Virus record (IMG/VR): IMGVR_UViG_3300017782_004909
Location: 1 to 53,604 of that record
DNA length: 53,604 bases
Reading direction: 5' to 3' (one strand)
Source of the DNA: a virus
Lineage: Duplodnaviria; Caudoviricetes
A program made the translations under genes and the position numbers. This document shows positions 1 through 19,201 of the stretch, one piece after another. Every line of letters begins with the position of its first letter. The first letter of the stretch is position 1. Under the pieces are notes generated by a model that was not told the origin of the DNA, did no database searches, and was given only the letters and a program-made list of their open reading frames with translations.

Positions 1-333
1 CTTTGTGATTCTTGGATTACTTCCGAGAAACGCATTGACTCTTACAAGTCAACCGAGATTGACGACAGAATCGCTCACGACTTAATCGTGCGTGGCTTTC
101 GTAATGGGGCTTGCTCTAAGACTCAAGTGACTGACATTGTCAACCAATGGCACGCACCTCAACACGAGGACTTCGAGGGTCGTGACTTGTGGTCGCTTTC
201 AAACGCTTTCACAAATATCTATCGTGGGAATCTCACGAACACGGCAAAGCGTTCAGCCTCGCTTCACTCTGTGCTTGACACCTATGCGAACTCTCGCACG
301 CCTAAGGTGGCAGAGGTCATAAACGCTTCCTAG
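1..333 (+). CDS. DUF932/DUF945-like phage protein, 5'-truncated by window edge
   Basis: Frame 1 is open from base 1 (LCDSWITSEKRIDSY...) to TAG at 331-333. The C-terminal DLWSLSNAFTN motif is typical of DUF932-type proteins. Confidence 0.6.
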   Translation, partial: LCDSWITSEKRIDSYKSTEIDDRIAHDLIVRGFRNGACSKTQVTDIVNQWHAPQHEDFEGRDLWSLSNAFTNIYRGNLTNTAKRSASLHSVLDTYANSRTPKVAEVINAS

Positions 334-346
334 TCAAAGACTTACG
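318..346. repeat. Degenerate copy of 29-bp palindromic motif
   Basis: cataaacgcttcctagtcaaagacttacg; right half closely matches the copies at 413 and 463. Confidence 0.5.
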
Positions 347-384
347 ACTCGCTCTCCAAAATAACGGAGGGCGAGTTTTTTTTT
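347..384 (+). terminator. Rho-independent terminator
   Basis: actcgctctcc-aaaataac-ggagggcgagt stem followed by a T run, just after the stop at 333. Confidence 0.8.
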
Positions 385-412
385 AAATTTTTTTAAATTT
401 GTGCTTGACATT

Positions 413-441
413 CGTAAGTGCTTGATAGTCAACGACTTGCG
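413..441. repeat. 29-bp imperfect palindrome, copy 1
   Basis: cgtaagtgcttga-tag-tcaacgacttgcg. Confidence 0.8.
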
Positions 442-462
442 TGCGGCGGGCATGGCGCGTTT

Positions 463-491
463 CGCAACTTGTTGATATTCAACGACTTACG
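463..491. repeat. 29-bp imperfect palindrome, copy 2
   Basis: cgcaacttgttga-tat-tcaacgacttacg, starting 50 bp after copy 1. Confidence 0.8.
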
Positions 492-587
492 GAATTTCAC
501 TACCAGAACTTAATAATATGTTATATGTGGTTATGTGCCTTATTAACTCTTTATTTGGTTTGGTGAGGATTGTCGAGCTATTTGCAT

Positions 588-647
588 AAAAAAAGAATCG
601 GCAGGGAATTGTTTGAGATGAATTCGCTCGCACCCTTACCGACTCTT
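588..647 (-). terminator. Terminator-like hairpin with large loop downstream of RuvB-like gene
   Basis: On the minus strand aagagtcggtaaggg pairs with ccctgccgattctt (G-U pairs, one bulge), followed by a T run. Confidence 0.55.
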
Positions 648-670
648 AATATATAATGAAAACAACTACA

Positions 671-1600
671 TTAAATCTTAGTCAACACATTCATACCTTT
701 ACCACTTATCTCACGCTGACCATTTATCTTCATTAGTCCACGCTTGAGTAGATAAAGCTCTGCCTCTTTCTGAATCGCAGTCCTTGACATACCTGTGACT
801 GCTGACAACATCTGAAGAGAACAATTACCTCGCTCTTGGAGAATCTGTAACAACTCTACCTCTAGGTTGGATAATCCCATTGGCTTGATGTCTAGTATGC
901 CACACATCTTTTTCCAATCGGTTAAGCTATATGTGTTTTGATTGCTTCTCTCACAATACAACATAATCTCTTTTGTTCGCATAACTGCTGAACGAGCGTT
1001 GCCCCTTGTGGTTTCTGCTATCTCTGATAACACACCCTCGCCAAATGAAATCTCTGATGCGACAAGCTCGATGATTTGCCCCAACTCCTCGACTGAATAC
1101 GGACGGAAATCCACGATAGTCAGTCTGTCCTTGAACGGAGCGAACAACTTATCCATTTCGGTAGTAGCAAATATAAAACATTGCTTGGTGAAATCGAACG
1201 CAAAAATTTGTTCTGCGTGGTGAAACTCTTTGTAACTACCTTTCTCAGTATTGAATATAGTAAGGAAAGCATTGACTAAATCCTTTGGAAGCATATGTGC
1301 TTCATCAAACAAGATAGTAATCTCATTATTCATTACGATAGGTAGGAATATCTGCTCAAAGAATGAATTGGCATTCTTGATAGTAGAGCAGTTAATCTCA
1401 AGGAAAGCACGAGTGTCTCCGTCCTTGTTCTTGAGTGAAGAAGCGTAACGCTTGGCGAACTCAGTCTTACCCAAGCCCTTTGCCCCACTCAACATTAAGA
1501 ATGGTGCAGTACCTGTTTTGTTTTGTGCTTCTGAATAGAATGTCAGTTGTTTTTTTACTTCGTTCTGACCTACGAGGTTTTTATATGTGGTAGTTTTCAT
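671..1600 (-). CDS. ruvB: RuvB-like Holliday junction branch-migration AAA+ ATPase
   Basis: LVGQNEVKKQL, Walker A GAKGLGKT, Walker B LFDEAH, FATTE, FKDRL, GNARSA, and a C-terminal winged helix (GLSNLE...ELYLLKRGLM...GQREIS) as in RuvB. Confidence 0.8.
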   Translation of the reverse strand: MKTTTYKNLVGQNEVKKQLTFYSEAQNKTGTAPFLMLSGAKGLGKTEFAKRYASSLKNKDGDTRAFLEINCSTIKNANSFFEQIFLPIVMNNEITILFDEAHMLPKDLVNAFLTIFNTEKGSYKEFHHAEQIFAFDFTKQCFIFATTEMDKLFAPFKDRLTIVDFRPYSVEELGQIIELVASEISFGEGVLSEIAETTRGNARSAVMRTKEIMLYCERSNQNTYSLTDWKKMCGILDIKPMGLSNLEVELLQILQERGNCSLQMLSAVTGMSRTAIQKEAELYLLKRGLMKINGQREISGKGMNVLTKI

Positions 1601-1618
1601 AGTTGCGATAATGACAGG

Positions 1619-1888
1619 TTAGGATTGTGTGTCAACAAAATTGTGTACTTTAAATGAGATTTTTTCTTCAACCTCTTTTGGCTCTTGTGAAACAGAAACT
1701 TTTGTTTGGTTAGCTTCTGTGATTGATGCTCCCATCTTCTCTAGCCACACACGACTAATAGGGATAAGAGTAGCTGACCCACAAAATTGTTCTAGGTCTG
1801 CTAGTGTTACATTGGCAAATGAGTTTGCCCCTTTCTTTCTGCCACTACCTTGTTTACGAGGTGTGCCGTCTTTGTTTACTGTTTTCAT
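1619..1888 (-). CDS. Hypothetical protein with basic AT-hook-like N-terminus (possible DNA binding)
   Basis: GTPRKQGSGRKKG. The ATG at 1888 lies 7 nt after a promoter -10 box. Confidence 0.6.
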   Translation of the reverse strand: MKTVNKDGTPRKQGSGRKKGANSFANVTLADLEQFCGSATLIPISRVWLEKMGASITEANQTKVSVSQEPKEVEEKISFKVHNFVDTQS

Positions 1889-1923
1889 ACTACCCAATAT
1901 AGAGATAGTTTTATGTATGTCAA
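1889..1923 (-). promoter_or_regulatory. sigma70-like promoter, probably leaderless
   Basis: TTGACA-N16-TATATT-N7-ATG. Confidence 0.7.
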
Positions 1924-1965
1924 CTTTTTTTTAAATTTATTTAAATTTTTTTAAATTTTGGCATC

Positions 1966-2133
1966 TTATGTTTTTTTTAGTTTGGCTAGGTTCATCATAG
2001 AGTTTGACACTACGGCAAGAAATATTCCGTGCGATACCATACCACAAAAGAACAAGATAATTGATGCGATAAGACAACCGATAGCCATATTTGTCCAAGT
2101 CAATATTTGGCGACTATATTTTTTGGCGAGCAT
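1966..2133 (-). CDS. Small membrane protein
   Basis: Hydrophobic ORF MLAKKYSRQILTWTNMAIGCLIASIILFF..., in operon order. Confidence 0.5.
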   Translation of the reverse strand: MLAKKYSRQILTWTNMAIGCLIASIILFFCGMVSHGIFLAVVSNSMMNLAKLKKT

Positions 2134-2137
2134 TATA

Positions 2138-2209
2138 TTACTTAGCACCCCAAAAGCAGTTGACTACTAGAGCTATAAAGGTGATTACGATTATCATTAT
2201 CTGTTCCAT
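2138..2209 (-). CDS. 23-aa hydrophobic peptide (not in ORF track)
   Basis: MEQIMIIVITFIALVVNCFWGAK*; ATG 7 nt after the -10 box of a consensus promoter. Confidence 0.45.
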   Translation of the reverse strand: MEQIMIIVITFIALVVNCFWGAK

Positions 2210-2244
2210 ACCCTCTATCATACCATATAAAAAGTTCTTGTCAA
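2210..2244 (-). promoter_or_regulatory. sigma70-like promoter, probably leaderless
   Basis: TTGACA-N16-TATGAT-N7-ATG. Confidence 0.7.
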
Positions 2245-2321
2245 GCAATATTTGGATTTTTTTTCGATTGTCGAGCGATTTTTAAATGCCCCAAATTTTT
2301 TTAAATTTATTTAAATTTTGT

Positions 2322-2567
2322 TTAATCTTTCTTATTCTTGTCAAATAGCTTGTTTATTCTGTCCATCTCATCTTGCCAATATCTCTTCTGAAACGACTTA
2401 TCATATTCAAACAACGCTTTCGGTAAGAATGTAGCAGTATCATATAATATATCCCATAAAAAGATAAAAGTTCTTAGTATCGTTATACATACCAAGTATA
2501 TCGGTGTTAGAACCAATGCAGTAAAAAGCGTTATAATATAACCTAACCAATAATTTGAATTCTTCAT
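2322..2567 (-). CDS. Hypothetical membrane protein
   Basis: 81-aa ORF with hydrophobic N-half; upstream TTGCTA-N17-TATAAG. Confidence 0.6.
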   Translation of the reverse strand: MKNSNYWLGYIITLFTALVLTPIYLVCITILRTFIFLWDILYDTATFLPKALFEYDKSFQKRYWQDEMDRINKLFDKNKKD

Positions 2568-2665
2568 AATATCTTATAGAACAACATATTTTATATAGCA
2601 AAGTGGGGCAGTTCCCCATTCATCTCCATTTTGTACCATATATAATATCTTTTGTTTGTTTTCCC

Positions 2666-2884
2666 TTATATATCCTCTCTATGTATGTATCCTACATCTT
2701 TGATGAATTCGTGGGTTGAATTGCGATAAAATAGGGGCTTAGAGGGCTTTTTAGTATCTAATTTAATCTGTAAGTTGATTAGTTTGTCCTCTACCCATAG
2801 TAGAGCGTTGATTAATAGGCTAAGTGCGATATGCACAAATTTTAATAAATTTTTTATAATTTTTTTAAATAATTTTAAATTCAT
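2666..2884 (-). CDS. Hypothetical protein
   Basis: 72-aa ORF on the same strand as its neighbours. Confidence 0.5.
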   Translation of the reverse strand: MNLKLFKKIIKNLLKFVHIALSLLINALLWVEDKLINLQIKLDTKKPSKPLFYRNSTHEFIKDVGYIHREDI

Positions 2885-2924
2885 CTTTTTATAATTTATA
2901 ATGGGTTATAATATTGTTTGTAAA

Positions 2925-3383
2925 TTACCAACCATCTGTCTGATTGTTACCATAAGTCTTATCCTCTCTCAAGTCCTCATACTGATTTGTAGCTTCGTGA
3001 TAAGAATGGCTATAATTCCAATCTCTGCTCTCTGTATGTGTGGTCATTGGCATATTGAAAGCATAAGCTCTTAAACCATCTCGCTTGGCAAGTAATGTGC
3101 CTAACTCATCATACAACCCATTTAACTCTGCATAAAAGTCATATTCGGTGTCATACTTATAATACAATTCTTTCTTATCATCAATCTTGCATTTAACGAT
3201 ACGAATATCTTGTTCTGTATCGCTGATAAGTCTGTTTTGTATATCTGTTCTCGTATCAAGAGATTGTTGCCTAGCTTCTGTCTCCATTGCTTCTGCTTCA
3301 GCTTCTGCTTCTTGGATTTTTTTATGCTCTCGCAATTCTTTCATTGTCATTTCTGCTTCTGTCTTTTTTGGTGGTGGTTTCAT
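2925..3383 (-). CDS. Hypothetical coiled-coil protein
   Basis: Glu/Ala-rich helical ORF; ATG at 3383 (MKPPPKK) preferred over the TTG start. Confidence 0.65.
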   Translation of the reverse strand: MKPPPKKTEAEMTMKELREHKKIQEAEAEAEAMETEARQQSLDTRTDIQNRLISDTEQDIRIVKCKIDDKKELYYKYDTEYDFYAELNGLYDELGTLLAKRDGLRAYAFNMPMTTHTESRDWNYSHSYHEATNQYEDLREDKTYGNNQTDGW

Positions 3384-3470
3384 AATTGATACTGATGTTT
3401 GGTGTTTTGGTTGGTAATTTAGTCTGCAAAAAGGTTTCTGCAAAGTGATTATGTAGTGAATTTGATATTC

Positions 3471-3686
3471 TCATCTGATTTCGTAATTTTTAAAAAATTT
3501 TTTTAAATCTCTTTCTATCTTCTTTTTGTCCTCTTTACTTAATCTTTTTATCCATTCTAGGTCAACATCTTTCAAGTGAACACACTCATTAAAGCATATA
3601 CGATTACGCTTGTCAATGGGGAAAACATTATGTGTCTCAAAAAAATAAGCACAAGCTACGGAGTTTAACGAAACATAATTACTCAT
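3471..3686 (-). CDS. Hypothetical protein
   Basis: 71-aa ORF, start overlaps the upstream small ORF. Confidence 0.6.
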   Translation of the reverse strand: MSNYVSLNSVACAYFFETHNVFPIDKRNRICFNECVHLKDVDLEWIKRLSKEDKKKIERDLKKFFKNYEIR

Positions 3687-3780
3687 TCTCTAACTCCTCT
3701 CCCAATGCTTTGAGCCATTTAATGATTGATAAATATAATAAGGTCAAAACCCCAAAAATAATTATAGCACCCCAAATCAT
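3679..3780 (-). CDS. 33-aa membrane peptide (not in ORF track)
   Basis: MIWGAIIIFGVLTLLYLSIIKWLKALGEELENE*; fills the gap and overlaps both neighbours (ATGA junction upstream). Confidence 0.5.
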   Translation of the reverse strand: MIWGAIIIFGVLTLLYLSIIKWLKALGEELENE

Positions 3781-3986
3781 AATAGTTTACCTAAGTCTTT
3801 TCTTGATTTCAAATGTCTCTTGTATGCCCTCTCTTGTCTAGCATATTGTCTACTTTTCTGCCTACATTTGCGAGCGACAAAGTCTTTTTCATTGTCAACC
3901 CACAAACATAGCCACCAACAACTTAAACTAAATATAATAGTTGCTACTATAAAAAACATAACACCATATACTTCTTGAGGAATCAT
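3777..3986 (-). CDS. Small membrane protein
   Basis: One TM segment plus basic tail; upstream TTGAAA-N16-TATTAT-N5-ATG. Confidence 0.6.
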   Translation of the reverse strand: MIPQEVYGVMFFIVATIIFSLSCWWLCLWVDNEKDFVARKCRQKSRQYARQERAYKRHLKSRKDLGKLL

Positions 3987-4015
3987 ACCCTATAATAAAG
4001 GGTAGAATCAATTTT

Positions 4016-4297
4016 TCAATCTGCTTCCTCCCAATATCCATCTTCTTCGTTGTAAACAAACTTTGTACCCTCAGTCAATTCGCTTGGCTCACGATTCTCT
4101 GAGAAACATTCTTGTAAAACATCAACGACTGCCGAATCAGATAATTCGTTTCGTTCCATATCATAAAAGTTCAAGCTACCACCATTGTCATCGTCATCAA
4201 TAACAATGAGGATTTCTTGCCCTTTGTACTTAACATTTAAAGAGTGCAACACTCTTCTGTAAGTTTCTTCTGCTGATTTTGTAATTTCTATACTCAT
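4016..4297 (-). CDS. Acidic hypothetical protein
   Basis: 93-aa Asp/Glu-rich ORF whose start overlaps the upstream stop (ATGA). Confidence 0.65.
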   Translation of the reverse strand: MSIEITKSAEETYRRVLHSLNVKYKGQEILIVIDDDDNGGSLNFYDMERNELSDSAVVDVLQECFSENREPSELTEGTKFVYNEEDGYWEEAD

Positions 4298-4965
4298 AAA
4301 TCTTTTAATGTATCATCAATTTTCTTTTGTGCTTCGTCATCTAAGCCAAATGCAGTAACATCTACCACTTTATTCCAATCTATGTTTGCCATACCTAATT
4401 CTTCGAGAATGTCTGCAAACTCTTCATCTGTCTCAACCAAATTTTTGATTGCTTGAACTTTCTTCTTTCTCTCTATCAATTCAGAACCTTGTTTGTGAAA
4501 CTCATTGTTTGGGTTGTCACTAAAGAATTGTTGAATTTGACTCCTAGTCATAGACCAACACTCTCTAGGGAACGATTTTGGTGGTGGAGGAGCAGAATAA
4601 GTTTTCTTTGGTTGTAGCAACATAGGGTTTTTAAACTCTTCACAAATGACCCTACTGATTGCACATTCTATAAGATATGGTGCTTCAATGTCGCCATCTT
4701 GATATAACTCCATACAATCAGTAAACATCGTTTCTTCCATCAAATACTTGTTGAGGTCAAAGTTGTAGCTCTTATCTTCGCAGTTGTTGTGAAAAACCTT
4801 TTCTTGCATACTTGAGTATGGAATACCAAGATAGTGACCATATACTTTTTTAGAAGAGTTGCGAAAACCTTTGGTTCGTCTTTCCCAAATAGTGTTGAAT
4901 CCCAAGTAATCTTCTTCAAGAACTTGTGGTGCGATGCTGAGTAATTTTAATTTTATATCTTTCAT
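4294..4965 (-). CDS. Hypothetical protein
   Basis: Long ORF; ATG at 4965 (MKDIKLK) avoids overlap with the upstream gene. Confidence 0.7.
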   Translation of the reverse strand: MKDIKLKLLSIAPQVLEEDYLGFNTIWERRTKGFRNSSKKVYGHYLGIPYSSMQEKVFHNNCEDKSYNFDLNKYLMEETMFTDCMELYQDGDIEAPYLIECAISRVICEEFKNPMLLQPKKTYSAPPPPKSFPRECWSMTRSQIQQFFSDNPNNEFHKQGSELIERKKKVQAIKNLVETDEEFADILEELGMANIDWNKVVDVTAFGLDDEAQKKIDDTLKDL

Positions 4966-4982
4966 AATTTTTTTAAATTTTT

Positions 4983-5501
4983 TTAAATTATCCACGAGGG
5001 TTTGTTTTTCTTCCAAGTGGCAAAGGGTTTGTCGTGTTTGTAATACAAGCGATACTTACCGACTTCGTCAACAGAATCAAATGTTGGGTCTTGTCTGCAA
5101 GTCATATGGTCGCTGATAGCGATTGCAAAGGTTGTCTGCTCTATACTCTCGTCTGCCAAGTTGTCAGCACGAAAAGGGTGGTCGAAAGCCCAATGCAAGA
5201 ACTCTGCTGAGAAATGTGGCTTGAAGCCTCTGTCTAACCTCTCGACTTCCATAGCGAGAGAATGTTCAAGAAGCCATCTCATATTCCCAAAGGTAGCTCT
5301 CGCCCAAATAGAGCAAGGGTGCTTGTAGTAAGAGTGCTTGCGAGCAGTACCCTTTTGTGTCTTGGGTGCTGACTCAAGCGTCTCTAGTGAAAAGCAGTTG
5401 GCAACCATCTGTGCTGACTCTAGCACCATTTTGTTACAATGTTGGTCGCACAACCACTTGGCTGATTGAATTGGGTCTTGGTCTATACAAAATATATTCA
5501 T
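4983..5501 (-). CDS. Pyrimidine dimer DNA glycosylase / endonuclease V-like protein
   Basis: MNIFCIDQDP...CDQHCNKMVLESAQM, HPCSIW, YRLYY..K..ATWK: the pattern of the phage Pyr_excise-related family. Confidence 0.7.
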   Translation of the reverse strand: MNIFCIDQDPIQSAKWLCDQHCNKMVLESAQMVANCFSLETLESAPKTQKGTARKHSYYKHPCSIWARATFGNMRWLLEHSLAMEVERLDRGFKPHFSAEFLHWAFDHPFRADNLADESIEQTTFAIAISDHMTCRQDPTFDSVDEVGKYRLYYKHDKPFATWKKNKPSWII

Positions 5502-5956
5502 AGGTGTAGTTTGACTTTCTCCCAATACAAGTCAAGGTTTTTTTGCTTCTTATCGTTCTTTGGGTTATCCACTCGTTTCCAAGCAGAGCCACCACCATTC
5601 CAAATGAAAGCTAAGTGCTTTGCAGTTGGGTTCTCAATCCCTTTCATATAATGAGAAAAGATTTCTTGTGCGACAATGTATGCCATAGCACGATTGTATG
5701 CAACATTATGTGGCAGGTCTTGATTTGTGATTCTGTTATAATCAGCAATCATAATCTCTCGAATCTGTAACGAACCAATAGCATTTTCCTTTATGTTTAT
5801 AGCATAAGGATTATTGTTCGACTCTACCTTTTCGATAGCTACAATAACATCAATGACATCAACGCTACCAAACACTTGAGATGTGCAAGCCCTAACACAC
5901 ATCAAAACAAATGCGATAAGGACAATAACTTGTGCAATTTTTTCTAACTTATACAT
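5498..5956 (-). CDS. Lytic transglycosylase / lysozyme-like protein with N-terminal membrane anchor
   Basis: VES catalytic Glu, AIGSLQI and WNGG motifs; hydrophobic N-terminus. Confidence 0.7.
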   Translation of the reverse strand: MYKLEKIAQVIVLIAFVLMCVRACTSQVFGSVDVIDVIVAIEKVESNNNPYAINIKENAIGSLQIREIMIADYNRITNQDLPHNVAYNRAMAYIVAQEIFSHYMKGIENPTAKHLAFIWNGGGSAWKRVDNPKNDKKQKNLDLYWEKVKLHL

Positions 5957-6248
5957 AATAATCTCTGTTTTTCATTATAACCCAATTACCATTACCCTCA
6001 AGACCTATAACATTGTATTCGGTAAACTCAATGGCTTCATCGTGTTCCATATTGCTTGGCTCTTTCATAAATACTTCTATGATTTTCTCATAGTCGTAAA
6101 CTAGATAACCTAATGATGTTACTCCAACGATTGCATCGTTGAGTCCGTCTAATTTTAAACAATCTTCTGCAAGATATTCTTGCAACTCGATTGGTGCTTC
6201 ATTGTCGCCCTCATCTTCGAGGTATCCGTTTTCGTTCTGTATATTCAT
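5949..6248 (-). CDS. Conserved-looking phage hypothetical protein
   Basis: DGLNDAIVG...VYDYEKII...EAIEFTEYNVIG pattern recalled from phage hypotheticals; start uncertain (6248 or 6293). Confidence 0.6.
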   Translation of the reverse strand: MNIQNENGYLEDEGDNEAPIELQEYLAEDCLKLDGLNDAIVGVTSLGYLVYDYEKIIEVFMKEPSNMEHDEAIEFTEYNVIGLEGNGNWVIMKNRDYYV

Positions 6249-6367
6249 CTTTATAGTAGTTTTTATAAGATTCTTTTTGTGTTTCTTCTTCAAGTTTTGT
6301 TTGAAGCCAATTTAGAAAGTCGTTTTGTTCTTTACCATACGACTCGTTTTCGACAGACTTGTCAACA

Positions 6368-6583
6368 CTAGAAATGTTTTTGCTCAATGTTTTCCTTTGA
6401 TTGTGGGTTAGTAGATAATGGGTGGTGTCTGAATTGATGTAACAGACTTAAAATTTCTCTTTTGTGAGAGACTTCTTGTTTATGCAAAGCATCTTCAATT
6501 TCCATTGTAGGTAAAGACGCTTGTCTTTGGTTTTTGCTCAACCACTTTTCTGTGTCTTTAATTTTCTGATTTAGCCAATCCAT
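6368..6583 (-). CDS. Hypothetical protein
   Basis: 71-aa ORF overlapping its neighbour. Confidence 0.55.
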   Translation of the reverse strand: MDWLNQKIKDTEKWLSKNQRQASLPTMEIEDALHKQEVSHKREILSLLHQFRHHPLSTNPQSKENIEQKHF

Positions 6584-6776
6584 TGTATTCCTCCTCTGTT
6601 AATAGATTATCTTGTCCCTCAACCTTGATGAGAACTTCGTGTTCTCTACCACTTAATGCTTTCATATCTCTGCGACATTCGTGAGCGTAAAGTTTTGCCT
6701 TGGGTATTTTAGTAGAATAGAAATTGACTTCTTTATGAGAGCGACAATCTCTGACAATATAGTTTGCATTTTGCAT
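6558..6776 (-). CDS. Hypothetical protein
   Basis: ORF; ATG at 6776 (MQNANY) preferred, 6878 possible. Confidence 0.55.
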   Translation of the reverse strand: MQNANYIVRDCRSHKEVNFYSTKIPKAKLYAHECRRDMKALSGREHEVLIKVEGQDNLLTEEEYNGLAKSEN

Positions 6777-6852
6777 TTTTTTTAAAATTTTTTTAAATTT
6801 GTTATGGGTTAGTTTTTTGGTGGCTCGAATCGTCAAGCCACCAAATGTAAAA

Positions 6853-7050
6853 CTAATCTGATAAGTCGATAGCTTCATCTATCTCAATACTCTTATCGGA
6901 GAAATCTGTGCCGAACATTACTGAGTGAATGTCCTCAAAGGTGTCTAAGCATTTACGCTCATCTACCTCGCTATTTTTTTGAAAGGTTTTTTGTCCTTTG
7001 AATATAGTTTCGCCATACTCATCTTTGACTTTAAAGTCGAGACTACTCAT
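6853..7050 (-). CDS. Hypothetical protein
   Basis: ORF beginning MSSLDFKVKDEYG. Confidence 0.55.
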   Translation of the reverse strand: MSSLDFKVKDEYGETIFKGQKTFQKNSEVDERKCLDTFEDIHSVMFGTDFSDKSIEIDEAIDLSD

Positions 7051-7110
7051 AATTATAAAACATATAGAAGAGAAAAACAAAAAAACATAGGATAGTTACT
7101 AAACTTGTTA

Positions 7111-7977
7111 TCAATCTTGTTCTTCATCATAATCTTCCTCGTCATTATCGTGGTAGTTATAATCGTTTTCGTCATCATCTCGATGCTCGCCATCTGTATA
7201 AACACTATAATAAGGTGCTTCAATTTCTGATTCCTCTCTTGGAATTTCTTTGATAACCTCATACTTGCACACTCGCAACTTCTGACAAGAGCAATCGCTA
7301 GGCACGCTTACTGCATCTCTTGGGTTGAAACGAACAAGTAACAACTTGCCACCACCTGCCCAATCATTTGCATAATCAAACGAACCAATGTGCAATCCGT
7401 GAGAGCAACCATTTTCACGATTGTCGTCAACACAATTTCTAGCTACCTCAATAGTTGACCCAACAACATTTTTGATTTGACCACGCTCATTGGTTTGACC
7501 TTGTAAAACGATAGTGTGCTTGTTTCCACTCTGACTCCAATAGTCGTTACAAACTCCCTTGTATCCGATAACATATCCGTCATCATCAATCGGTAATTGT
7601 TTATAAGAAAGAAAGTCGTACAACTCTTCAACGGAATTGTTGCTTGGGTTATCTAGTAGATTCTTTACGAACTTAACGAAAGCAGAGCCAACATCTAATC
7701 CACTACCAAGCAAGTCTAACAACTTGTCGATAACTTTTCCGTGTAGTCTCTGTCCGTGATAATAAACTGCACCTTTGTCCACTACCAAGTCTCCATCAGC
7801 AAATGCTTCGACTTGCTTACGAATGTCTAGGTAGTCTATCGCAGTTTCAAAATCCCCACTTATCAATGCCTTTTTAAAAGGCTTAAAGTTTGGTTGTGAG
7901 GATTCAAGAGTATAAGGTTTGCCCTCATACAAAAGAGTCGCAGTTGACTCTGATACTATATATGGATAATTTGCCAT
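7111..7977 (-). CDS. rIIB: rIIB-like protein
   Basis: GYKGV..DY, RNCVDDNRENGCSHGLHIGS, VRFNPRDAVSVP.DC...KLRVCKYEV motifs; near an rIIA gene. Confidence 0.85.
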   Translation of the reverse strand: MANYPYIVSESTATLLYEGKPYTLESSQPNFKPFKKALISGDFETAIDYLDIRKQVEAFADGDLVVDKGAVYYHGQRLHGKVIDKLLDLLGSGLDVGSAFVKFVKNLLDNPSNNSVEELYDFLSYKQLPIDDDGYVIGYKGVCNDYWSQSGNKHTIVLQGQTNERGQIKNVVGSTIEVARNCVDDNRENGCSHGLHIGSFDYANDWAGGGKLLLVRFNPRDAVSVPSDCSCQKLRVCKYEVIKEIPREESEIEAPYYSVYTDGEHRDDDENDYNYHDNDEEDYDEEQD

Positions 7978-8007
7978 AAGAATTTTTTTGTTTTGTTAGT
8001 TAATAAT

Positions 8008-8769
8008 TTATACTTCTATACTAAAAGAACTCTTGTCGTTGTCAAGGACATCAGCCCAATACGAACAATCTTTCTCGCCTTTTTTTCTGTTCCAATATAT
8101 CGCCCTAGCAATAGCACTAGGAACATTATACATTGCCGAAAATTCTGTCCAATGGTTTTCCAACTCACGATACTTTGGTAAGTGTAGTGATTGGTCGTAA
8201 CCATACGCTTGGAATAAATGTGTGTCGCAACAAAATACTCCACAATCAAAAGTGTATATCATTTCTAAAGCGAAAGATACTTTAGCCATACCTAATCCAA
8301 GAATGTCTTTGACAAGGCTATCTCTGAATTCTGACCACTTCTGATTTTTTTTAAATTTAAATAAATTTGGGTTCTGCCAATATTTTCTAGCGAACTCGCT
8401 GATAAACTTTGTTCGGTTGTTGTATAATCCAACACCACTACCTTTAAGTTTGTCGAATAAGACATCATCTTTGTTGAACCATTCTGTAAAGTCCTTAATT
8501 GCAAGATAACCTCGCATATTGGACTCGTAGGAGGTATGGACTGAACAAAAGGCAAACAACCACCTTTGAAATACATCAACATCATTTGTGGGTTTGAGTC
8601 GTTCCCATACAACACTATGGTCAATAATCTCGTCTTCTGTAATTGAAGCGAAGAACTTTTCGACATCTGTCTTGTTATGTTTCTTAATATGTACTCTATT
8701 CTTTTCATCTAGGAATGATAGTTGTTCAGTTGGTTTATTCTCTGTGTAGGATAAAAAATCTAATTGCAT
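8008..8769 (-). CDS. HhH-GPD superfamily DNA glycosylase (OGG2-like)
   Basis: RDSLVKDILGLGMAKVSFAL helix-hairpin-helix followed by CDTH catalytic Asp motif. Confidence 0.7.
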   Translation of the reverse strand: MQLDFLSYTENKPTEQLSFLDEKNRVHIKKHNKTDVEKFFASITEDEIIDHSVVWERLKPTNDVDVFQRWLFAFCSVHTSYESNMRGYLAIKDFTEWFNKDDVLFDKLKGSGVGLYNNRTKFISEFARKYWQNPNLFKFKKNQKWSEFRDSLVKDILGLGMAKVSFALEMIYTFDCGVFCCDTHLFQAYGYDQSLHLPKYRELENHWTEFSAMYNVPSAIARAIYWNRKKGEKDCSYWADVLDNDKSSFSIEV

Positions 8770-8776
8770 AATATTT

Positions 8777-8817
8777 AAAAATTGTGTCGGCTAGGAACTA
8801 CCACACTCCTAGCCGAC
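8777..8817 (-). terminator. Strong hairpin between rIIA and the glycosylase gene
   Basis: Perfect 11-bp stem gtcggctagga / tcctagccgac; on the minus strand followed by acaattttt. Confidence 0.5.
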
Positions 8818-8825
8818 TATGATTA

Positions 8826-10967
8826 CTACTCTCCGATATACGCTAACACATCAGAAATACTTGTCGGTCTGTCGCTAATGCAACCCTCAAGGCAATACTT
8901 TGCCATAGGAAACGCTTTGTCGAACGCTCGCTTCCTCGCTAATGATTCGCCACTTAACTTCTGTGACTTGAGTCTTTCCATCACATAGTCGTGATTGTAA
9001 TTTTGATTGTAAACTTTTGATTGTTTCAATCTCCAACCATTATAATTTTTTAATAAATTTTTTAAAATTTCATTTAGGTTATCTTTTGGGAACTTAGCAA
9101 TATCTTCCATCAAGGTTTTGTCGTACCCATCAAAAAGCTCTTTCTCTTCGTACCACTTAACATAGTTTTGAATACCCTCGTCTTGCTTGACCAAATCTTC
9201 ATAGACATCATCAAGGCAAATCCAATTATCCTTTTTCTCAATTCGACTCTTTAGGTTTTTACGAACACCCCAAATGCTTTCTTTGAAATTAGGAATGTTT
9301 GATAAATAATTTCTAATGAAATTGTAAGGATTAATTTCACATTCGCCACTTGCACCAAGGTGTTTTCTGTAAGGCTCGAAAGTAATTTTGTTCGCATAGT
9401 AATTAACATAATAGAATGTCTTACTATCGTCATCAAAATCTACATCTTGGTTTATTCCCCAAAAGGAATCAAGATTTGCCCACTCGTGTTGAATACTAGA
9501 GTCAAACTTTAGAATATCCATAGCTGATAAAGATTTCACAACACCTTTCTTCCTAGCTTTCTGTGGAGCAATCATTCGCTCGCACTCTGATAGCAGTTTG
9601 ACATTTGGGTGGTTACAATCTTTGACTCGCTGAACACACAACGCTTGGGTGTCGTATGTGCCATCAATACTATCGGCTTTCATACCCTCTGAATTGATAA
9701 GCACAATCTTGGCGAATCCTCTGTCTATCTTATTCTCTTTCTCAAAGTCGTGTAAGAACAGACATCTTGACTTTGGAGAGCGAGGACTTGGAGAATCATC
9801 AACGATATAAATAACTTTATCACTTGGAGAGTTATCATTGTAACTATACCTTGAATGAGAGAAGCTTAAGTTACCATTTTCTCTAGTGGTAATGTGGGTT
9901 TCTTTGGCAATCCATTCTTTAGGAAACAAACAACCATTCACATCTTTGAACTTCTCAGAAGAGACTTTGAGCTTTGTGCCGAATCTCTGTCTGTAAGTTT
10001 CCATAGCTCTGTACATAATCTCACTAGCTTCATAGAAAGTATCAGCCTTGTCCATCTGACTAGCTAACTCTTCATTGAGCTTGGCGAATATCTTATCTGA
10101 TGCTTTCTTGAGAGCTTGTTTGACTGATGGACTATACTCCAATGTCTCACGACTATGGTGCAACTTAAACTCTCCAATCTCTGCTTTGTAAACAAGACCA
10201 TTCTTGAACATAAACCATTCTTCATCTTTGTTTACCTTGTATGGAATACCACCCATAAGAACATAAGGGTCGTCTCCATAGTGAGCGACATCTTCCCAAT
10301 AACTATTCTCTTTATACAAATCAAATACATCATTGGATTCTTGTGGTTTGCCCAATCTTAAATCTCCCCAATCTTCATTGAGTAGTTTAATATCATCTTT
10401 ACGATACCACCAAGTTTTTTTAAAAATTTTAAAAAATTCTTCAATGTCATTTTTTTTGATTCCTACTTGTACATAGATTCCATCAGCTTCTTTAGTTGGC
10501 TGACTTTCAATCTGTGAGACAATGGTATCGTCTTGTTCGTCCACTCTTATAATATAGGAATGTTTGTGACCTTGGTGTACTGACCTTACAATAAAAGAAT
10601 CTGTGTACGATAAGGGTGCGAATCGCCCAATGCCGAAACCACCGATTGATTCGTTGGAGTCACGCTTGGTTGACTTACCATACTTAGTATAAAGACCAAG
10701 CATATCTTCCTCACTCAAACCACACCCAAAATCTCGTACTATAAAGTTTGGTTCAATTTGGGTTGGTAATTGAATATCTACCTTTTTACTTTTACTAACA
10801 TCAAGTGCATTTGCAATAATTTCACGAATGGTAGCCAACAACGGATTAGAATAGTTGTTCCGTAAAAGAGAAGCGATATATCGCATATCCTCTTGGTCAA
10901 TCGAACAAGACCTTTCTTTAAAGTCTGCTGATTTAGTTATGTTTTTGTGGTTGGATTTAATAATCAT
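8826..10967 (-). CDS. rIIA: rIIA-like protein (N-terminal GHKL ATPase)
   Basis: REIIANALD, VRDFGCGLS, YGKSTKRDSNESIGGFGIG, SRETLEY. Confidence 0.85.
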   Translation of the reverse strand: MIIKSNHKNITKSADFKERSCSIDQEDMRYIASLLRNNYSNPLLATIREIIANALDVSKSKKVDIQLPTQIEPNFIVRDFGCGLSEEDMLGLYTKYGKSTKRDSNESIGGFGIGRFAPLSYTDSFIVRSVHQGHKHSYIIRVDEQDDTIVSQIESQPTKEADGIYVQVGIKKNDIEEFFKIFKKTWWYRKDDIKLLNEDWGDLRLGKPQESNDVFDLYKENSYWEDVAHYGDDPYVLMGGIPYKVNKDEEWFMFKNGLVYKAEIGEFKLHHSRETLEYSPSVKQALKKASDKIFAKLNEELASQMDKADTFYEASEIMYRAMETYRQRFGTKLKVSSEKFKDVNGCLFPKEWIAKETHITTRENGNLSFSHSRYSYNDNSPSDKVIYIVDDSPSPRSPKSRCLFLHDFEKENKIDRGFAKIVLINSEGMKADSIDGTYDTQALCVQRVKDCNHPNVKLLSECERMIAPQKARKKGVVKSLSAMDILKFDSSIQHEWANLDSFWGINQDVDFDDDSKTFYYVNYYANKITFEPYRKHLGASGECEINPYNFIRNYLSNIPNFKESIWGVRKNLKSRIEKKDNWICLDDVYEDLVKQDEGIQNYVKWYEEKELFDGYDKTLMEDIAKFPKDNLNEILKNLLKNYNGWRLKQSKVYNQNYNHDYVMERLKSQKLSGESLARKRAFDKAFPMAKYCLEGCISDRPTSISDVLAYIGE

Positions 10968-11002
10968 TCCTCACATAAAATAGATTTATATGAGTATGTC
11001 AA
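10968..11002 (-). promoter_or_regulatory. sigma70-like promoter for rIIA
   Basis: TTGACA-N16-TTTTAT-N7-ATG. Confidence 0.55.
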
Positions 11003-11034
11003 ACAGAAAAAAGCACCACAAGTGTGTGATGCTT

Positions 11035-11063
11035 CGTAAGTCGTTGGTTTTCAACGATTAAAA
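11035..11063. repeat. 29-bp imperfect palindrome, copy 3
   Basis: cgtaagtcgttgg-ttt-tcaacgattaaaa; same consensus as 413 and 463. Confidence 0.7.
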
Positions 11064-11077
11064 ATTTTCATTTTTTT

Positions 11078-11191
11078 TTACTTTTTACCAAGAACCTTGT
11101 TGATAAGAGCCTTACCTTTACTTAAAAGACAACACTTCTTACCTACAAAATATCCAATAAAAAATACTACTAAAAAAGATACAATATCCAT
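11078..11191 (-). CDS. 37-aa membrane peptide (not in ORF track)
   Basis: MDIVSFLVVFFIGYFVGKKCCLLSKGKALINKVLGKK*. Confidence 0.5.
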   Translation of the reverse strand: MDIVSFLVVFFIGYFVGKKCCLLSKGKALINKVLGKK

Positions 11192-11208
11192 AATTTTTTT
11201 AAATTTTT

Positions 11209-11505
11209 TTAATTCTTTTTGGGACTTTTCTTAGGAGTCGTTTTATTGGCAACTCTTTTCTTAGCTACCTTTTTTTTAGCAGTCTTTTTAGTTGCAGTTT
11301 TCTTTGGCGTAGAGGCGATTTTTTCTGCCATTTTCTTAGCTACCTCTTTCTTGCCACTACTTGCGTAGGTTGGCTTGGTTGCGTATGATGTCTTATTTGG
11401 CTCACAAGACTTCGTTGAGCATTTCTTGCCCTTCTTCCATTCAATAATGGATAGGACAACTATAGCACCTACAATGTAGGTTAGTGGGTTTGATAATAAT
11501 TCCAT
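11209..11505 (-). CDS. Membrane-anchored Lys/Ala-rich (histone H1-like tail) protein
   Basis: N-terminal TM followed by KKTATKKTAKKKVAKK repeats. Confidence 0.7.
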   Translation of the reverse strand: MELLSNPLTYIVGAIVVLSIIEWKKGKKCSTKSCEPNKTSYATKPTYASSGKKEVAKKMAEKIASTPKKTATKKTAKKKVAKKRVANKTTPKKSPKKN

Positions 11506-11548
11506 ATATATATACTTATTTGCGATTTATTTTATTTGGTGAGCGATT

Positions 11549-11827
11549 TTAGACTTCGTCTGAGTCTTTATGTTTATCTGTGATGTGACGCTCTTGAATA
11601 AGAATCTTAAGTTTCATATTCAATCTAATCATATCATTATCTAATGATTGTACTTGCTTCTTTAGCTTTCCTAATGAAGCACCCACATCACTTAAAGCAG
11701 GATTTACTTTTGTTGTGACCCATTTCCAAATGTGCCAAACAAAGAATCCGAGTCCGATTAACGCTATTAGCGAGAATCCGAATTTGCTGACTAGGTCAGC
11801 CCAATGTTGAAATTCATATCCACTCAT
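11549..11827 (-). CDS. Single-TM coiled-coil protein, holin-like
   Basis: KFGFSLIALIGLGFFVW TM, then LDNDMIRLN coiled coil; resembles its upstream neighbour. Confidence 0.6.
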   Translation of the reverse strand: MSGYEFQHWADLVSKFGFSLIALIGLGFFVWHIWKWVTTKVNPALSDVGASLGKLKKQVQSLDNDMIRLNMKLKILIQERHITDKHKDSDEV

Positions 11828-11844
11828 AATATCTTATTTGGCTT

Positions 11845-11872
11845 ATACTAACTCGAAAAGTGATTTTGTCAA
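11845..11872 (-). promoter_or_regulatory. sigma70-like promoter
   Basis: TTGACA-N16-TAGTAT. Confidence 0.6.
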
Positions 11873-11873
11873 G

Positions 11874-12158
11874 TTAATCATCTCGACAATCCTCTTTGCC
11901 CTCACTCGCTGCAATTCTATCCATATTTGGCTCACAACCAAACGCACACGAAAATTGTGCATCAATCTTTACTATGTCGTTGTTCATTACATCTACTTTA
12001 TTTTCGAGCGATAGTAACGAGTTTGAAATACTTGAAATCTTGTCTGTTACTTGAGCTAAAAGAAATTTAATAATAATAAACAGAAACCAACCAACTGCCA
12101 ATGCACTTGTAATTGGTACTCCTATTTGTTCTACAAAGTTTAATATATCTCCTATCAT
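11874..12158 (-). CDS. Single-TM coiled-coil protein, holin-like (YvrJ-like GxP motif)
   Basis: QIGVPITSALAVGWFLF TM, then MNNDIVKID coiled coil. Confidence 0.6.
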   Translation of the reverse strand: MIGDILNFVEQIGVPITSALAVGWFLFIIIKFLLAQVTDKISSISNSLLSLENKVDVMNNDIVKIDAQFSCAFGCEPNMDRIAASEGKEDCRDD

Positions 12159-12195
12159 AATGTCTTATTTGGTTTTTTTTTAATCGTCAAGCGAT

Positions 12196-12681
12196 TTATC
12201 CTTTACGTCCTCCTGGTGTGAAGTAGAATCCAATGATTGCCCCCAAAGTGGTGATTGCAACAAGAGAGATGTGTCCCGTCGTAATACTGGTGGTAATATC
12301 TGCTCCACTCGGGAAAGTAATGAGTCCCCAGAGGATTTGGGTGGGTTCTTTATTTTCGGGGGGAGTGAAGGTGACGAGAGTGACTCCAGGGTAGAGGGTG
12401 CAGAGTATCGAGATGATTGCAAAGTTGAGCATCCCCATAAAAGCGATAAGACGACGAGTAGCACGAGTAAACATGCCAGTATCTTTGTCAGTTTCGCCAA
12501 TGAGCATTTTTTGAAATTCAATGTCCATTCCACGGATTTGCATGTCTCTAATAAGTTCACGACGTTCTTTCGCAGCTTTAGACTCTGAAATACCTTGAAA
12601 AGTGCCACCAAGAATCTTAAGCATACTGCCCATCCCAGTCGCCCCAAGTGTCGATAATAGCATCGTGACAAGTCCAAACAT
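12196..12681 (-). CDS. Multi-TM holin-like membrane protein
   Basis: Hydrophobic N-terminus, two further TM segments, C-terminal IIGFYF; start supported by GTGTAA-N8-ATG. Confidence 0.6.
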   Translation of the reverse strand: MFGLVTMLLSTLGATGMGSMLKILGGTFQGISESKAAKERRELIRDMQIRGMDIEFQKMLIGETDKDTGMFTRATRRLIAFMGMLNFAIISILCTLYPGVTLVTFTPPENKEPTQILWGLITFPSGADITTSITTGHISLVAITTLGAIIGFYFTPGGRKG

Positions 12682-12689
12682 AACTTCAT

Positions 12690-12695
12690 TTACAC
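12690..12695 (-). promoter_or_regulatory. GTGTAA motif (putative phage late promoter)
   Basis: GTGTAA-atgaagtt-ATG. Confidence 0.6.
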
Positions 12696-12720
12696 TATAA
12701 TAATACTATTTGGAAATTTT

Positions 12721-12966
12721 TCAACTGTTAGGCGTAAACTGAAAAGCTATTCTGCCATATTGATGCTCTTTATCGCCTATCCAAGCAGAAAATTCAATAA
12801 ATGTTTCTCCTACGATAAATTCAAGCAATTCTACAAAAAACTCCTCATTTTGAAATTTAAGGGTGTAGTTTTTATGAAATTGATAAACCAATTCTCCTTC
12901 ACCAGATTTGTCCATTAGTCTTTTGCAACCATCATTGGTGCCTATTACTTTTAAATGACCTTTCAT
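12721..12966 (-). CDS. Hypothetical protein
   Basis: 81-aa ORF preceded by GTGTAA-N8-ATG. Confidence 0.65.
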   Translation of the reverse strand: MKGHLKVIGTNDGCKRLMDKSGEGELVYQFHKNYTLKFQNEEFFVELLEFIVGETFIEFSAWIGDKEHQYGRIAFQFTPNS

Positions 12967-12974
12967 ACTATATT

Positions 12975-12980
12975 TTACAC
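12975..12980 (-). promoter_or_regulatory. GTGTAA motif (putative phage late promoter)
   Basis: GTGTAA-aatatagt-ATG. Confidence 0.6.
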
Positions 12981-12981
12981 A

Positions 12982-13404
12982 TTATTCTTCGACATTTCTT
13001 CTTTCAATGTCATCTTCTTCGCAGGCAATTCCTCTCTGAATTTCCATCACATAACAAACAGAGTCTCCGTTGTTAGTAGCTTGGTGCCATTGACCCATAT
13101 TAACGTGACAAATTGCACCTCGAGCAAGTGGTCTATAATAAGAATATTGATCTTCACCCTCTGGTTCAGTTAAATACTGCTGTTCCATTAATGGCACTGT
13201 ATTAGAATCAATAGACAATTTCATCTCTAAGCCACCTTCCAATATTATCCAAGTTTCTGCTCTTTTAAAATGCCTTTGATCTGACAAAGATTGACCAGGA
13301 TTTATATAAAGATTTTTAATTTTATAGCTGTCGAAGGAGTCTGCACTACCAGTAACATGTTTAATTACTTCGTAATAACCCCATGATTTATTTACTTGTT
13401 CCAT
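12982..13404 (-). CDS. Mannose-6-phosphate isomerase type II-like cupin
   Basis: KSWGYYEV, INPGQSLSDQRHFKRAETW, WHQATN, EIQRG...EEDDIER. Confidence 0.8.
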   Translation of the reverse strand: MEQVNKSWGYYEVIKHVTGSADSFDSYKIKNLYINPGQSLSDQRHFKRAETWIILEGGLEMKLSIDSNTVPLMEQQYLTEPEGEDQYSYYRPLARGAICHVNMGQWHQATNNGDSVCYVMEIQRGIACEEDDIERRNVEE

Positions 13405-13877
13405 ATTGTGTGTGGTAATTCTAAAATATCTTCCATTTTTATGATTGAGATTAAATCTTTTCTACCTGCTCTTTGATAACCTTTGTAGAGTGCATCACTA
13501 CTATTAGTTACCTTATCTTCAATATTACACTTGACCTTAGCCATGCCTAATAAATAATTCCGTTTTACTAAAACAAAATCGTTTTCTCTTTCAAAAGCTA
13601 TGATATCTACTGCTGATTTAAGCCAACCATTACGACCTTGGACATTTAAAAATTCAACCCACACCAATTCATCTTGCTCGTTACTGTCAGACCTGCTGAT
13701 TCTTTTTTGAGCTTTAACATCTATTGTACCAAAACTTGTGTGGTAATCAATGTGGCGAAATTGATTTTCTCTATTTGCTTTTTTATAATTCGGATCACGT
13801 TTCTTTAAAAGTTTTGTAAACTCTTTTTCTACGCGTTGACCACGATTCCAGCTTTTTGTACCCTTCCAATTACTCAT
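13392..13877 (-). CDS. PD-(D/E)XK endonuclease-like protein
   Basis: G..VEKEF, HIDY, IDVKAQK, WVEFLNVQGRNGWL. Confidence 0.65.
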   Translation of the reverse strand: MSNWKGTKSWNRGQRVEKEFTKLLKKRDPNYKKANRENQFRHIDYHTSFGTIDVKAQKRISRSDSNEQDELVWVEFLNVQGRNGWLKSAVDIIAFERENDFVLVKRNYLLGMAKVKCNIEDKVTNSSDALYKGYQRAGRKDLISIIKMEDILELPHTIWNK

Positions 13878-14035
13878 TTTTTCTTTTCTAAGTTTTTCTT
13901 AATTGCATCATCTATTTTAGGCGTAACCTTACGACCCACATGTTCATTAAAAACCATATCGCCAGATGAACGACCATATAGCTTGCCTATGTTACTCTTA
14001 AACTGAGTTCTTCCTTTAAGTGTCTTTTTTGCCAT
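13874..14035 (-). CDS. 53-aa basic protein (not in ORF track)
   Basis: MAKKTLKGRTQFKSNIGKLYGRSSG...KKNLEKKK*; ATGA overlap with the downstream gene. Confidence 0.55.
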   Translation of the reverse strand: MAKKTLKGRTQFKSNIGKLYGRSSGDMVFNEHVGRKVTPKIDDAIKKNLEKKK

Positions 14036-14219: not shown

Positions 14220-14255
14220 AAAAATACTTATAGACTATAAAATTAAATTTGTCAA
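14220..14255 (-). promoter_or_regulatory. sigma70-like promoter, probably leaderless
   Basis: TTGACA-N17-TATAAG-N7-ATG. Confidence 0.6.
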
Positions 14256-14473: not shown

Positions 14474-14475
14474 AA

Positions 14476-19200: not shown

Positions 19201-19201
19201 T

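Follow-up and report, generated by a model that had tools for sequence, protein, structure and literature searches.

Introduction

Variable blocks of small genes make up much of the unknown gene content of marine phages, and the expression of newly acquired genes in such blocks is poorly understood outside two groups, the T4-type phages with their PeSL elements (promoter plus stem-loop; Arbiol et al, 2010) and the Cluster K mycobacteriophages with their start-associated sequences (SASs). In excerpts of the report on SASs (Pope et al, 2011, PMC3203893), their function is described as unproven, with translation initiation as the presumed process. UP elements are, in the parts of the literature drawn on here, A/T-rich tracts at −40 to −60, and the early promoters of T4 are described as UP/−35/TGn/−10 promoters (PMC6501063, PMC2988021). 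In Flavobacterium johnsoniae, according to the relevant part of a further report, A-rich leaders promote Shine-Dalgarno–independent initiation (PMC6847099). Here, we compare with these systems a repeated 21-nt motif in a stretch of 53,604 nt (IMG/VR virus record IMGVR_UViG_3300017782_004909, positions 1 to 53,604; this whole stretch is hereafter called the window), which is part of an uncultured marine tailed phage. The motif is best read as a stereotyped A/T-only gene-junction module of one variable (hyperplastic) block in this phage lineage. Judging from the sequences, we see about an even chance that it acts as an A/U-rich start-associated linker for Shine-Dalgarno–independent translation, doubling as an UP-like tract and copied among shuffled cassettes.

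Results

Copies of the motif in the window

On the minus strand, which codes for every gene in 671–19714 of the window and hence gives the sense direction here, the core of the motif reads ATTTAAAAAAATTTAAAAAAA, comprising 21 letters, A and T only, in two 10-nt units. The window was scanned with the plus-strand query TTTTTTTAAATTTTTTTAAAT, allowing up to 4 mismatches and collapsing overlapping hits. As a result, all 11 copies that an earlier note on this DNA had listed, as strand-polar, T-rich on the plus strand and phased at about 10 bp, were found to be present in the sequence and to form one block (Table 1). In 1–12000, the collapsed counts on the plus and minus strands were 6/0 at up to 1 mismatch, 7/0 at up to 2, and 10/0 at up to 3, compared with 0/0, 0/0, and 1/1, respectively, in 12001–53604 (41.6 kb). 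For each Markov order, 200 sequences of 12 kb were simulated from a model trained on this region, and the means at 3 mismatches were 0.01 (order 1), 0.02 (order 3), and 0.29 (order 5, maximum 3). Thus, the motif is neither equally dense across the genome nor as frequent in shuffled sequence, either of which the earlier note had considered to be fatal to its proposal, and its remark that only a few weak copies occur later was confirmed as well. The motif family was also recovered by independent repeat finding, as families D1–D4.

The strand polarity is real, although it is not independent of the genes: it follows the minus-strand genes, so that the motif is A-rich in the sense direction. The copies are spaced by 370–1810 nt, which corresponds to gene and cassette lengths and shows no periodicity. 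Eight of the 11 copies are located at gene boundaries, and the remaining three lie within genes. A narrow full-text search for a 13-nt core of the motif returned 10 papers, none of them on phages by title, which does not prove that the motif is undescribed.

Table 1. Copies of the A/T motif, neighbouring signals and genes in the window. For motif copies, the strand is the sense strand.
Feature	Position	Strand	Scan hit on plus strand, start (mismatches)	Description
Motif copy, other	378–398	minus	378 (0)	Perfect 21-mer; no gene start after it; adjoins 31-nt repeats at 411–441 and 461–491
Motif copy, class U	1925–1959	minus	1926 (1)	Three-unit array; covers about −37 to −71 of promoter
Promoter	1886–1923	minus		Sigma-70 type: TTGACA 1918–1923, 16-nt spacer, TATATT 1896–1901, 7 nt, ATG 1886–1888
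Motif copy, other	2293–2319	minus	2296 (1)	Two units; begins 2 nt after stop of open reading frame (ORF) 2322–2567
Motif copy, other	2837–2880	minus	2850 (2)	Up to four degenerate units; overlaps codons 3–16 of ORF 2666–2884
Motif copy	3484–3508	minus	3488 (3)	Overlaps last codons of ORF 3471–3686
Motif copy, class S	4966–4990	minus	4968 (0)	Perfect 21-mer at 4968–4988; ATG of 223-aa gene (4963–4965) after 2 nt
Motif copy, class S	6777–6800	minus	6778 (1)	Copy at 6778–6798; ATG of conserved 72-aa gene (6774–6776) after 1 nt
Hairpin	6819–6842	minus		GC-rich; between stop of previous gene and 6778 copy; then A-run, no U-tract
Look-alike in gene	8345–8368	minus	8346 (3)	In Ogg-like glycosylase gene
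Look-alike in gene	9043–9070	minus	9048 (3)	In rIIA; peptide ILKNLLKN
Look-alike in gene	10415–10439	minus	10415 (4)	In rIIA; peptide EFFKIFKK
Motif copy, class S	11192–11214	minus	11194 (1)	Copy at 11194–11214; ATG of 37-aa membrane peptide (11189–11191) after 2 nt
Later weak copies			36574 (4), 36867 (3), 37920 (4)	
Only hits of the query on the other strand	starts 20829, 21431, 22569, 10417			3–4 mismatches
Consensus promoters set against start codons	starts 1600, 1888, 2209, 10967, 12689, 14473, 48065, 52089	minus		
Clamp-loader-like ATPase	671–1600	minus		
denV-like pyrimidine-dimer glycosylase	4983–5501	minus		
SLT-domain protein	5498–5956	minus		
rIIB	7111–7977	minus		
Ogg-like glycosylase	8008–8769	minus		
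rIIA	8826–10967	minus		

The motif in related phages

Seven viral contigs whose rIIA is 65–94% identical to that of the window carry the motif in the matching block, on the sense strand and downstream of rIIA, with sense/antisense counts at up to 3 mismatches of 10/0 (L002), 9/0 (L003), 10/1 (L004), 10/0 (L006), 4/1 (L005), 1/1 (L001), and 3/2 (L007). In contigs of 40–87 kb, nearly all of the copies with up to 2 mismatches fall within one block of about 10–12 kb, the exception being one weak copy in the relative G001, which is the counterpart of the copy at 36867 in the window. At the same threshold, no antisense copy was found in the window or in L002–L006, compared with two in L007, one in L020, and one in L023. 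Perfect 21-mers occur in L020 and L023, whose homologues of an 89-aa protein encoded in the block are 68% and 61% identical, respectively. The number of units per array varies among genomes (2 to at least 4), and, where the genes of relatives are on the other strand, the motif is on that strand as well.

Copies that abut start codons

Three boundary copies abut a start codon, which defines class S. The TAA stop codon of the denV-like gene (4983–4985) lies inside the copy at 4966–4990 and that of a lysine-rich 98-aa gene (11209–11211) inside the copy at 11192–11214; the stop of the preceding ORF is often a TAA within the motif. To quantify start adjacency, sense copies with up to 2 mismatches were collected from nine sequences (the window, L002–L007, L020, and L023). 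As a result, an ATG opening at least 30 codons was found at −1 to +8 nt for 24 of the 45 copies, a set in which many members are orthologous, compared with 5–8% for random positions. By our reading of the alignments, the genes downstream of class S copies belong to at least 12 unrelated families. Furthermore, of the 58 starts in the window, the three class S starts have the most A (16–17) and are among the four with the lowest G+C (0–1 in 25 nt).

The junction between the lysine-rich gene and the gene for the 37-aa peptide consists of about 21–28 nt of A and T from stop to ATG in nine phages, in which rIIA identity is down to 44%, the sole exception being L007, in which a C immediately precedes the ATG. 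A and T are ordered differently among these phages, and T-runs replace A-runs in L001 and L005. The same exclusion of G and C with a shifting A/T order was observed at the junction before the 72-aa gene. G/C exclusion together with free A/T exchange is more readily reconciled with a signal that depends on composition than with a promoter box or an operator, although perfect 21-mers that persist at other junctions point in the opposite direction. The hairpin at 6819–6842 is kept by compensatory changes in L003, L007, and L013 (four sequence versions) and may be an RNA-stabilising or processing signal. Relative to L002–L005, the 223-aa gene (4294–4965) is an insertion directly after the copy at 4968.

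A weak copy (4 mismatches) at 20825–20849, with plus-strand sense, directly precedes the ATG of a tail gene (20849–21223); the 25 nt before this ATG contain no G or C, which is a class S-like leader outside the main block. The lysine-rich 98-aa protein (11209–11505, minus strand) carries a hydrophobic helix at its N terminus and, as histone H1 does, a tail rich in lysine, alanine, and proline, and its position is conserved in relatives including L013. A neighbouring sub-block without the motif (11505–11550, 11827–11845, and 12158–12190) has CCAAATAAGAyATT directly before ATG, and a repeat of about 34 nt (family D6; also at 551–584 and 2249–2282) is common to this sub-block and the spacer after the copy at 2296.

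The array upstream of a promoter

Class U comprises copies directly upstream of a promoter −35 box. The array at 1925–1959 has an A8 run (1925–1932) that ends 1 nt upstream of the TTGACA of the promoter at 1896–1923, which matches 11 of 12 consensus positions and precedes the conserved gene for the 89-aa protein (1619–1888). When the copies were examined for the placement of an UP element, that is, an A/T-rich tract at about −40 to −60 adjoining the −35 hexamer, this array was found to be so placed and the other 10 copies were not. TTGACN is located 32–40 nt before the ATG in 30 of the 55 distinct upstream regions of homologues of the 89-aa gene, and an A-run of at least 5 ends within 5 nt of TTGACN in 24 of these 30 promoters; the A-run beside the −35 box in relatives is usually preceded, at a distance of one helical turn, by a T-tract. 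L007 and L020 have the tract of this promoter in inverted orientation, as is permitted for an orientation-tolerant DNA element, and sense copies precede consensus promoters of opposite-strand genes in the record behind L007, which also holds L015. It is plausible from the sequence that the phased A-tracts of 1925–1959 have a role at the DNA level, so that the DNA-level signal that the earlier note had proposed could stand for this array at its UP position, but not for the copies within genes.

Consensus promoters set against start codons occur repeatedly in this phage. The pattern TTGA[CA]A, 16–17 nt, [TC]AnnnT, 6–8 nt, and ATG was found 10 times on the minus strand and never on the plus strand, compared with 0.36 per strand in shuffled sequences; 6 of the 10 matches are at called starts, and the promoters at starts 10967 and 14473 were recognised by eye. 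The rIIA gene of the distant relative L013 has the same layout. Promoters so placed imply mRNAs that have no leader or almost none.

In the 89-aa protein, two predicted helices follow a basic arm, PRKxGSGRKKG, that is invariant. Neither Pfam nor PHROG has a family that matches the protein, whose metagenomic relatives number 171 at E 0.001 or better among 172 candidates, on contigs of up to 121 kb. Confidence in the structure model is low (pLDDT 69.3, pTM 0.27). The protein is a candidate binder of A/T-tract DNA.

The remaining boundary copies

The complementary T-run of the perfect copy at 378–398 is the U-tract (T9) of a plus-strand terminator hairpin at 346–377, an arrangement that recurs in L002 and L004. 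A GC-rich hairpin directly followed by a U-tract, as expected of an intrinsic terminator, was found for this copy alone, read on the plus strand, and a terminator function for the motif was otherwise rejected by eye and by consensus scan. After the copy at 2293–2319 come the conserved letters TTTGGGGCAT and then, at a distance of about 50 nt, the promoter (2217–2244) of a 23-codon ORF; conserved non-coding letters follow several copies of this kind. A short hairpin (2824–2836) follows the array at 2837–2880. The ATG of a conserved 50-codon ORF (3322–3474) lies 13 nt after the copy at 3484–3508, and that of its homologue in L002 and L004 lies 4 nt after a perfect copy.

Another repeat, about 31 nt long (family D5), was observed at 316–346, 411–441, 461–491, and 11033–11063; it adjoins the copy at 378 and precedes the terminator and the promoter of rIIA. 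D5-related pairs flank GC-rich cores beside motif-plus-promoter modules in L007 (about 20880–20960), L015, and L013, and the repeat could be an operator, a structured RNA, or an origin-like element.

Copies within genes

Three copies do lie within the Ogg-like glycosylase and rIIA genes, as had been noticed, and they are the weakest members of the set (3–4 mismatches), while the copies at 2837–2880 and 3484–3508 also overlap the ends of small ORFs. The glycosylase copy encodes a peptide similar to the rIIA pair. The peptides are conserved in L007 (rIIA 65% identical), and a related one is present in L013 (44%), which answers the question, raised in the earlier note, of whether rIIA homologues lack them. 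When the genes were resampled 300 times with the codon usage of the phage and the proteins fixed, counting matches with up to 4 mismatches as look-alikes, at least one look-alike was found in 47% of the resampled glycosylase genes, and resampled rIIA had a mean of 0.53 look-alikes, with two or more in 4.7%. Over 46 genes, 8 hits were observed compared with a resampled mean of 3.3, and 4 compared with 0.65 at 3 mismatches. Because look-alikes often return when only the codons are changed, the copies within genes mostly follow from K/F/L/N/I-rich peptides and AT-rich codons, although a modest excess is left unexplained, and the notion of a signal overlaid on coding sequence was not upheld.

Predicted curvature

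Curvature was computed over 21 bp with a wedge model. The copies are predicted to bend by 24–47 degrees per 21 bp, corresponding to the 81st to 99.7th percentile of the window. However, none of the 25 most bent sites in the window overlaps a listed copy, the nearest being at 11171, about 20 nt from the copy at 11191–11214; two of the 25 (20834 and 37928) coincide with late weak copies. Predicted curvature, though high at the motif, does not single it out from other sites in the window.

Gene content, relatives and host

Tail genes occupy the plus strand in 19735–35417, with replication genes beyond. Two giant tail proteins of 2332 and 1817 aa are encoded there in tandem (22556–29554 and 29964–35417), and the central region of each matches the central tail fibre J. 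A 1574-aa protein (14476–19200, minus strand) is T/G/N/S-rich and fibre-like; it showed no family or PDB sequence match and no convincing catalytic motif. A comparison of 1–20000 of the window with 50,697 phage records yielded no near-identical match, and the relatives found by tblastn, queried with rIIA and the DnaE-type polymerase, were all below 32% identity; no cultured phage is close. Six sequencing runs share sampled words with the stretch, three of them being on record as RNA; the word shares were 0.05–0.15 in five runs and 0.21 in one run of unrecorded kind.

L013 and L014, whose rIIA is 42–44% identical, are short contigs binned into metagenome-assembled genomes (MAGs) of Flavobacteriaceae (a Candidatus Arcticimaribacter MAG and a Flavobacterium MAG). 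This binning hints at a host, yet it conflicts with the promoter and Shine-Dalgarno signals of the phage. The phage promoters are of the TTGACA/TATAAT type, and TAHHTTTG boxes are rare: the −7/−33 promoter of Bacteroidota, in which TAHHTTTG is placed 4–5 nt before the transcription start, was not enriched, with 3 exact matches within 80 nt upstream of 59 starts. The motif followed by TTTG would give AAAATTTG, in which the T at −12 is absent.

Discussion

The positions, polarity, conservation, and G/C exclusion described above may be accounted for by a gene-junction module that works at two levels. At class S sites, the motif would form an unstructured, A-rich A/U leader on a polycistronic mRNA, extending from the previous stop codon to the next AUG, which could load or re-load ribosomes directly after the stop without a Shine-Dalgarno sequence. 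At class U sites, the same A-tracts, as DNA upstream of the −35 box, would act as an UP element for the host RNA polymerase, putatively through contact with its alpha subunit. The near-identity of the copies would then result from copying and recombination between junctions as cassettes come and go, rather than from a reader of specific letters.

Several observations weigh against this explanation. Strong Shine-Dalgarno sequences precede a few phage genes, and the host is hence probably able to use them. The 45 copies counted for start adjacency are not independent, many being orthologous. In addition, 19 of these 45 adjoin neither an ATG nor a −35 box (378, 2296, and 2850 in the window), although the script used for classification undercounts class U where an array unit intervenes, and at least two of the 19 (L003 18810 and L004 18150) are upstream units of class U arrays. 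Such copies, including the perfect one at 378–398, require a third explanation, for example, as relics or as far-upstream promoter DNA. Finally, perfect 21-mers persist in L007 and L023, in which the 89-aa homologues are 67% and 61% identical and the contigs are of up to 41% G+C, and this conservation exceeds what a signal based on composition alone would need.

It is also conceivable, although we consider it unlikely, that the motif is a universal gene adaptor specific to this lineage, which would combine a stop in two of three frames, a ribosome-loading leader independent of Shine-Dalgarno sequences, and a 21-nt homology patch, and which would also be read by a dedicated phage factor. If so, a gene arriving between two copies would be expressed at once and be exchangeable between co-infecting phages, and the factor, which would be either a RegA-like repressor or the 89-aa protein with its basic arm, could turn all genes of the variable block on or off together.

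Among the alternatives to a translational linker, the one that survives best, while still being unlikely, is that the motif is a promoter for the host RNA polymerase with a phage factor, such as the sigma-like protein of a relative. Transcription starts would coincide with the motif or closely follow it, so that the mRNAs of class S sites would be leaderless and class U sites would have promoters in tandem. A single explanation would then cover class S, class U, and those other copies that have conserved non-coding letters, the strict sense polarity would suit a directional signal, and the phage already sets consensus promoters against start codons. The 193-aa sigma-like protein matches phrog_351 (E 3.8e-8) but stays below the Pfam cut-off (Sigma70_r2, E 0.019), lies outside the window, and has no assigned target promoters. 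It is encoded in L011 (6646–7227) of the relative G001, between the dNMP kinase and SSB genes. No −35 or −10 match in register with the ATG was found by eye and by consensus scan, the letters that would form the −10 box switch from an A-run to a T-run at orthologous junctions, and no phage RNA polymerase was present among the proteins scanned.

A slightly lower probability is assigned to the possibility that the motif is an operator of a sequence-specific phage regulator, either an RNA-binding translational repressor that would shut off the genes of the block, as RegA is in T4, or a DNA-binding protein such as the 89-aa product. In favour of the latter, its own promoter carries the largest array and its basic arm is found throughout a large family, and both the restriction of the motif to one block and the perfect 21-mers at different junctions in phages with 89-aa homologues down to 61% identical would suit such a regulator. 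Nevertheless, the free exchange of A and T at orthologous junctions is unlike an operator, and the low confidence of the structure model and the lack of a Pfam or PHROG match for the 89-aa protein count against it.

Somewhat less probable still, the copies could mainly be recombination scars or linkers, short identical repeats at cassette borders that would persist by mediating gene shuffling or expand by slippage and would not themselves contribute to expression. In favour of this, the block varies among relatives and so does the array length, a perfect copy lies on one side of the 223-aa gene and a degenerate one (15 of 24 letters in a manual comparison) on the other, and, in our reading, some 36 alignment break points include about 14 that are no more than 60 nt from a copy, a closeness that is confounded by the clustering of break points at gene borders anyway. 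The exclusion of G and C over about 21–28 nt in nine diverged phages, together with the tight distance to the ATG, indicates selection on the sequence.

The proposal of the earlier note, namely that the copies are sites of bent DNA or of protein loading that serve, independently of genes, to let the DNA enter, to protect it, or to organise the chromosome, is very improbable, because, for all the 10-nt phasing of the A-tracts, the predicted bends, and the confinement to one end of the minus-strand block, the strong copies track stop/start junctions and promoters, the strand switches with the genes in relatives, the 25 sites of strongest predicted bending overlap none of the listed copies, and the copies within genes are largely explained by the encoded peptides.

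The junction module would offer a practical means of locating gene starts and cassette borders in a widespread group of uncultured phages. If its role as a Shine-Dalgarno–independent leader is true, it could also be used as a compact expression part.

Compared with SASs, as these are presented in excerpts of the report (PMC3203893), the motif is likewise a short asymmetric repeat with 11–19 copies per genome in a non-structural region, almost always in one orientation, located a few nucleotides from the start codons (mostly ATG) of genes of different families, with the upstream stop codon sometimes inside the repeat. The start adjacency, the single orientation, and the confinement to one block demonstrated here agree with the placement of SASs. 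However, the SAS, a sequence of 13 bp related to GGGATAGGAGCCC, is rich in G/C and includes a Shine-Dalgarno core, whereas the motif is 21 nt of pure A/T with a 10-nt internal repeat and no such core. In addition, the motif, unlike the SAS in that description, is also located upstream of −35 boxes, and the phages and hosts are unrelated. Thus, the motif resembles the SAS in its working and is not a member of the SAS family.

PeSLs, in the sections of the report that describe them (PMC2839356), are repeated intergenic modules in hyperplastic regions of small non-essential genes, at which insertions, deletions, and replacements occur between close relatives. The motif may be similar in these respects: its block is variable, with the 223-aa insertion after the copy at 4968, but break points and copies are both found at gene borders in any case, and recombination between copies of the motif is putative. 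A PeSL consists of a full sigma-70-type promoter and a terminator stem-loop, whereas in the 21-mer and its flanks neither promoter box, −35 or −10, is present in register with the start codon, the consensus promoters being elsewhere in the block, and hairpins accompany only two or three copies (346–377, 6819–6842, and 2824–2836).

As for the other two systems, so far as the cited portions of the reports go, the position of an UP element is matched by the array at 1925–1959 and by the 24 promoters of relatives, at which alpha-subunit contact is putative, while only a minority of the motif copies lie at a −35 box, unlike UP elements, and most abut start codons, where no core promoter fits. The initiation regions of F. 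johnsoniae (PMC6847099) share with class S copies upstream adenines and low mRNA structure as features favouring initiation, but their A-richness is a statistical tendency rather than a fixed, repeated 21-mer; some class S copies have U at −12 and −13, unlike those regions. Taken together, the motif is closest in behaviour to SASs and PeSLs while lacking the defining features of both, and an A/T junction module serving start codons and promoters alike would represent a third solution, simpler than either.

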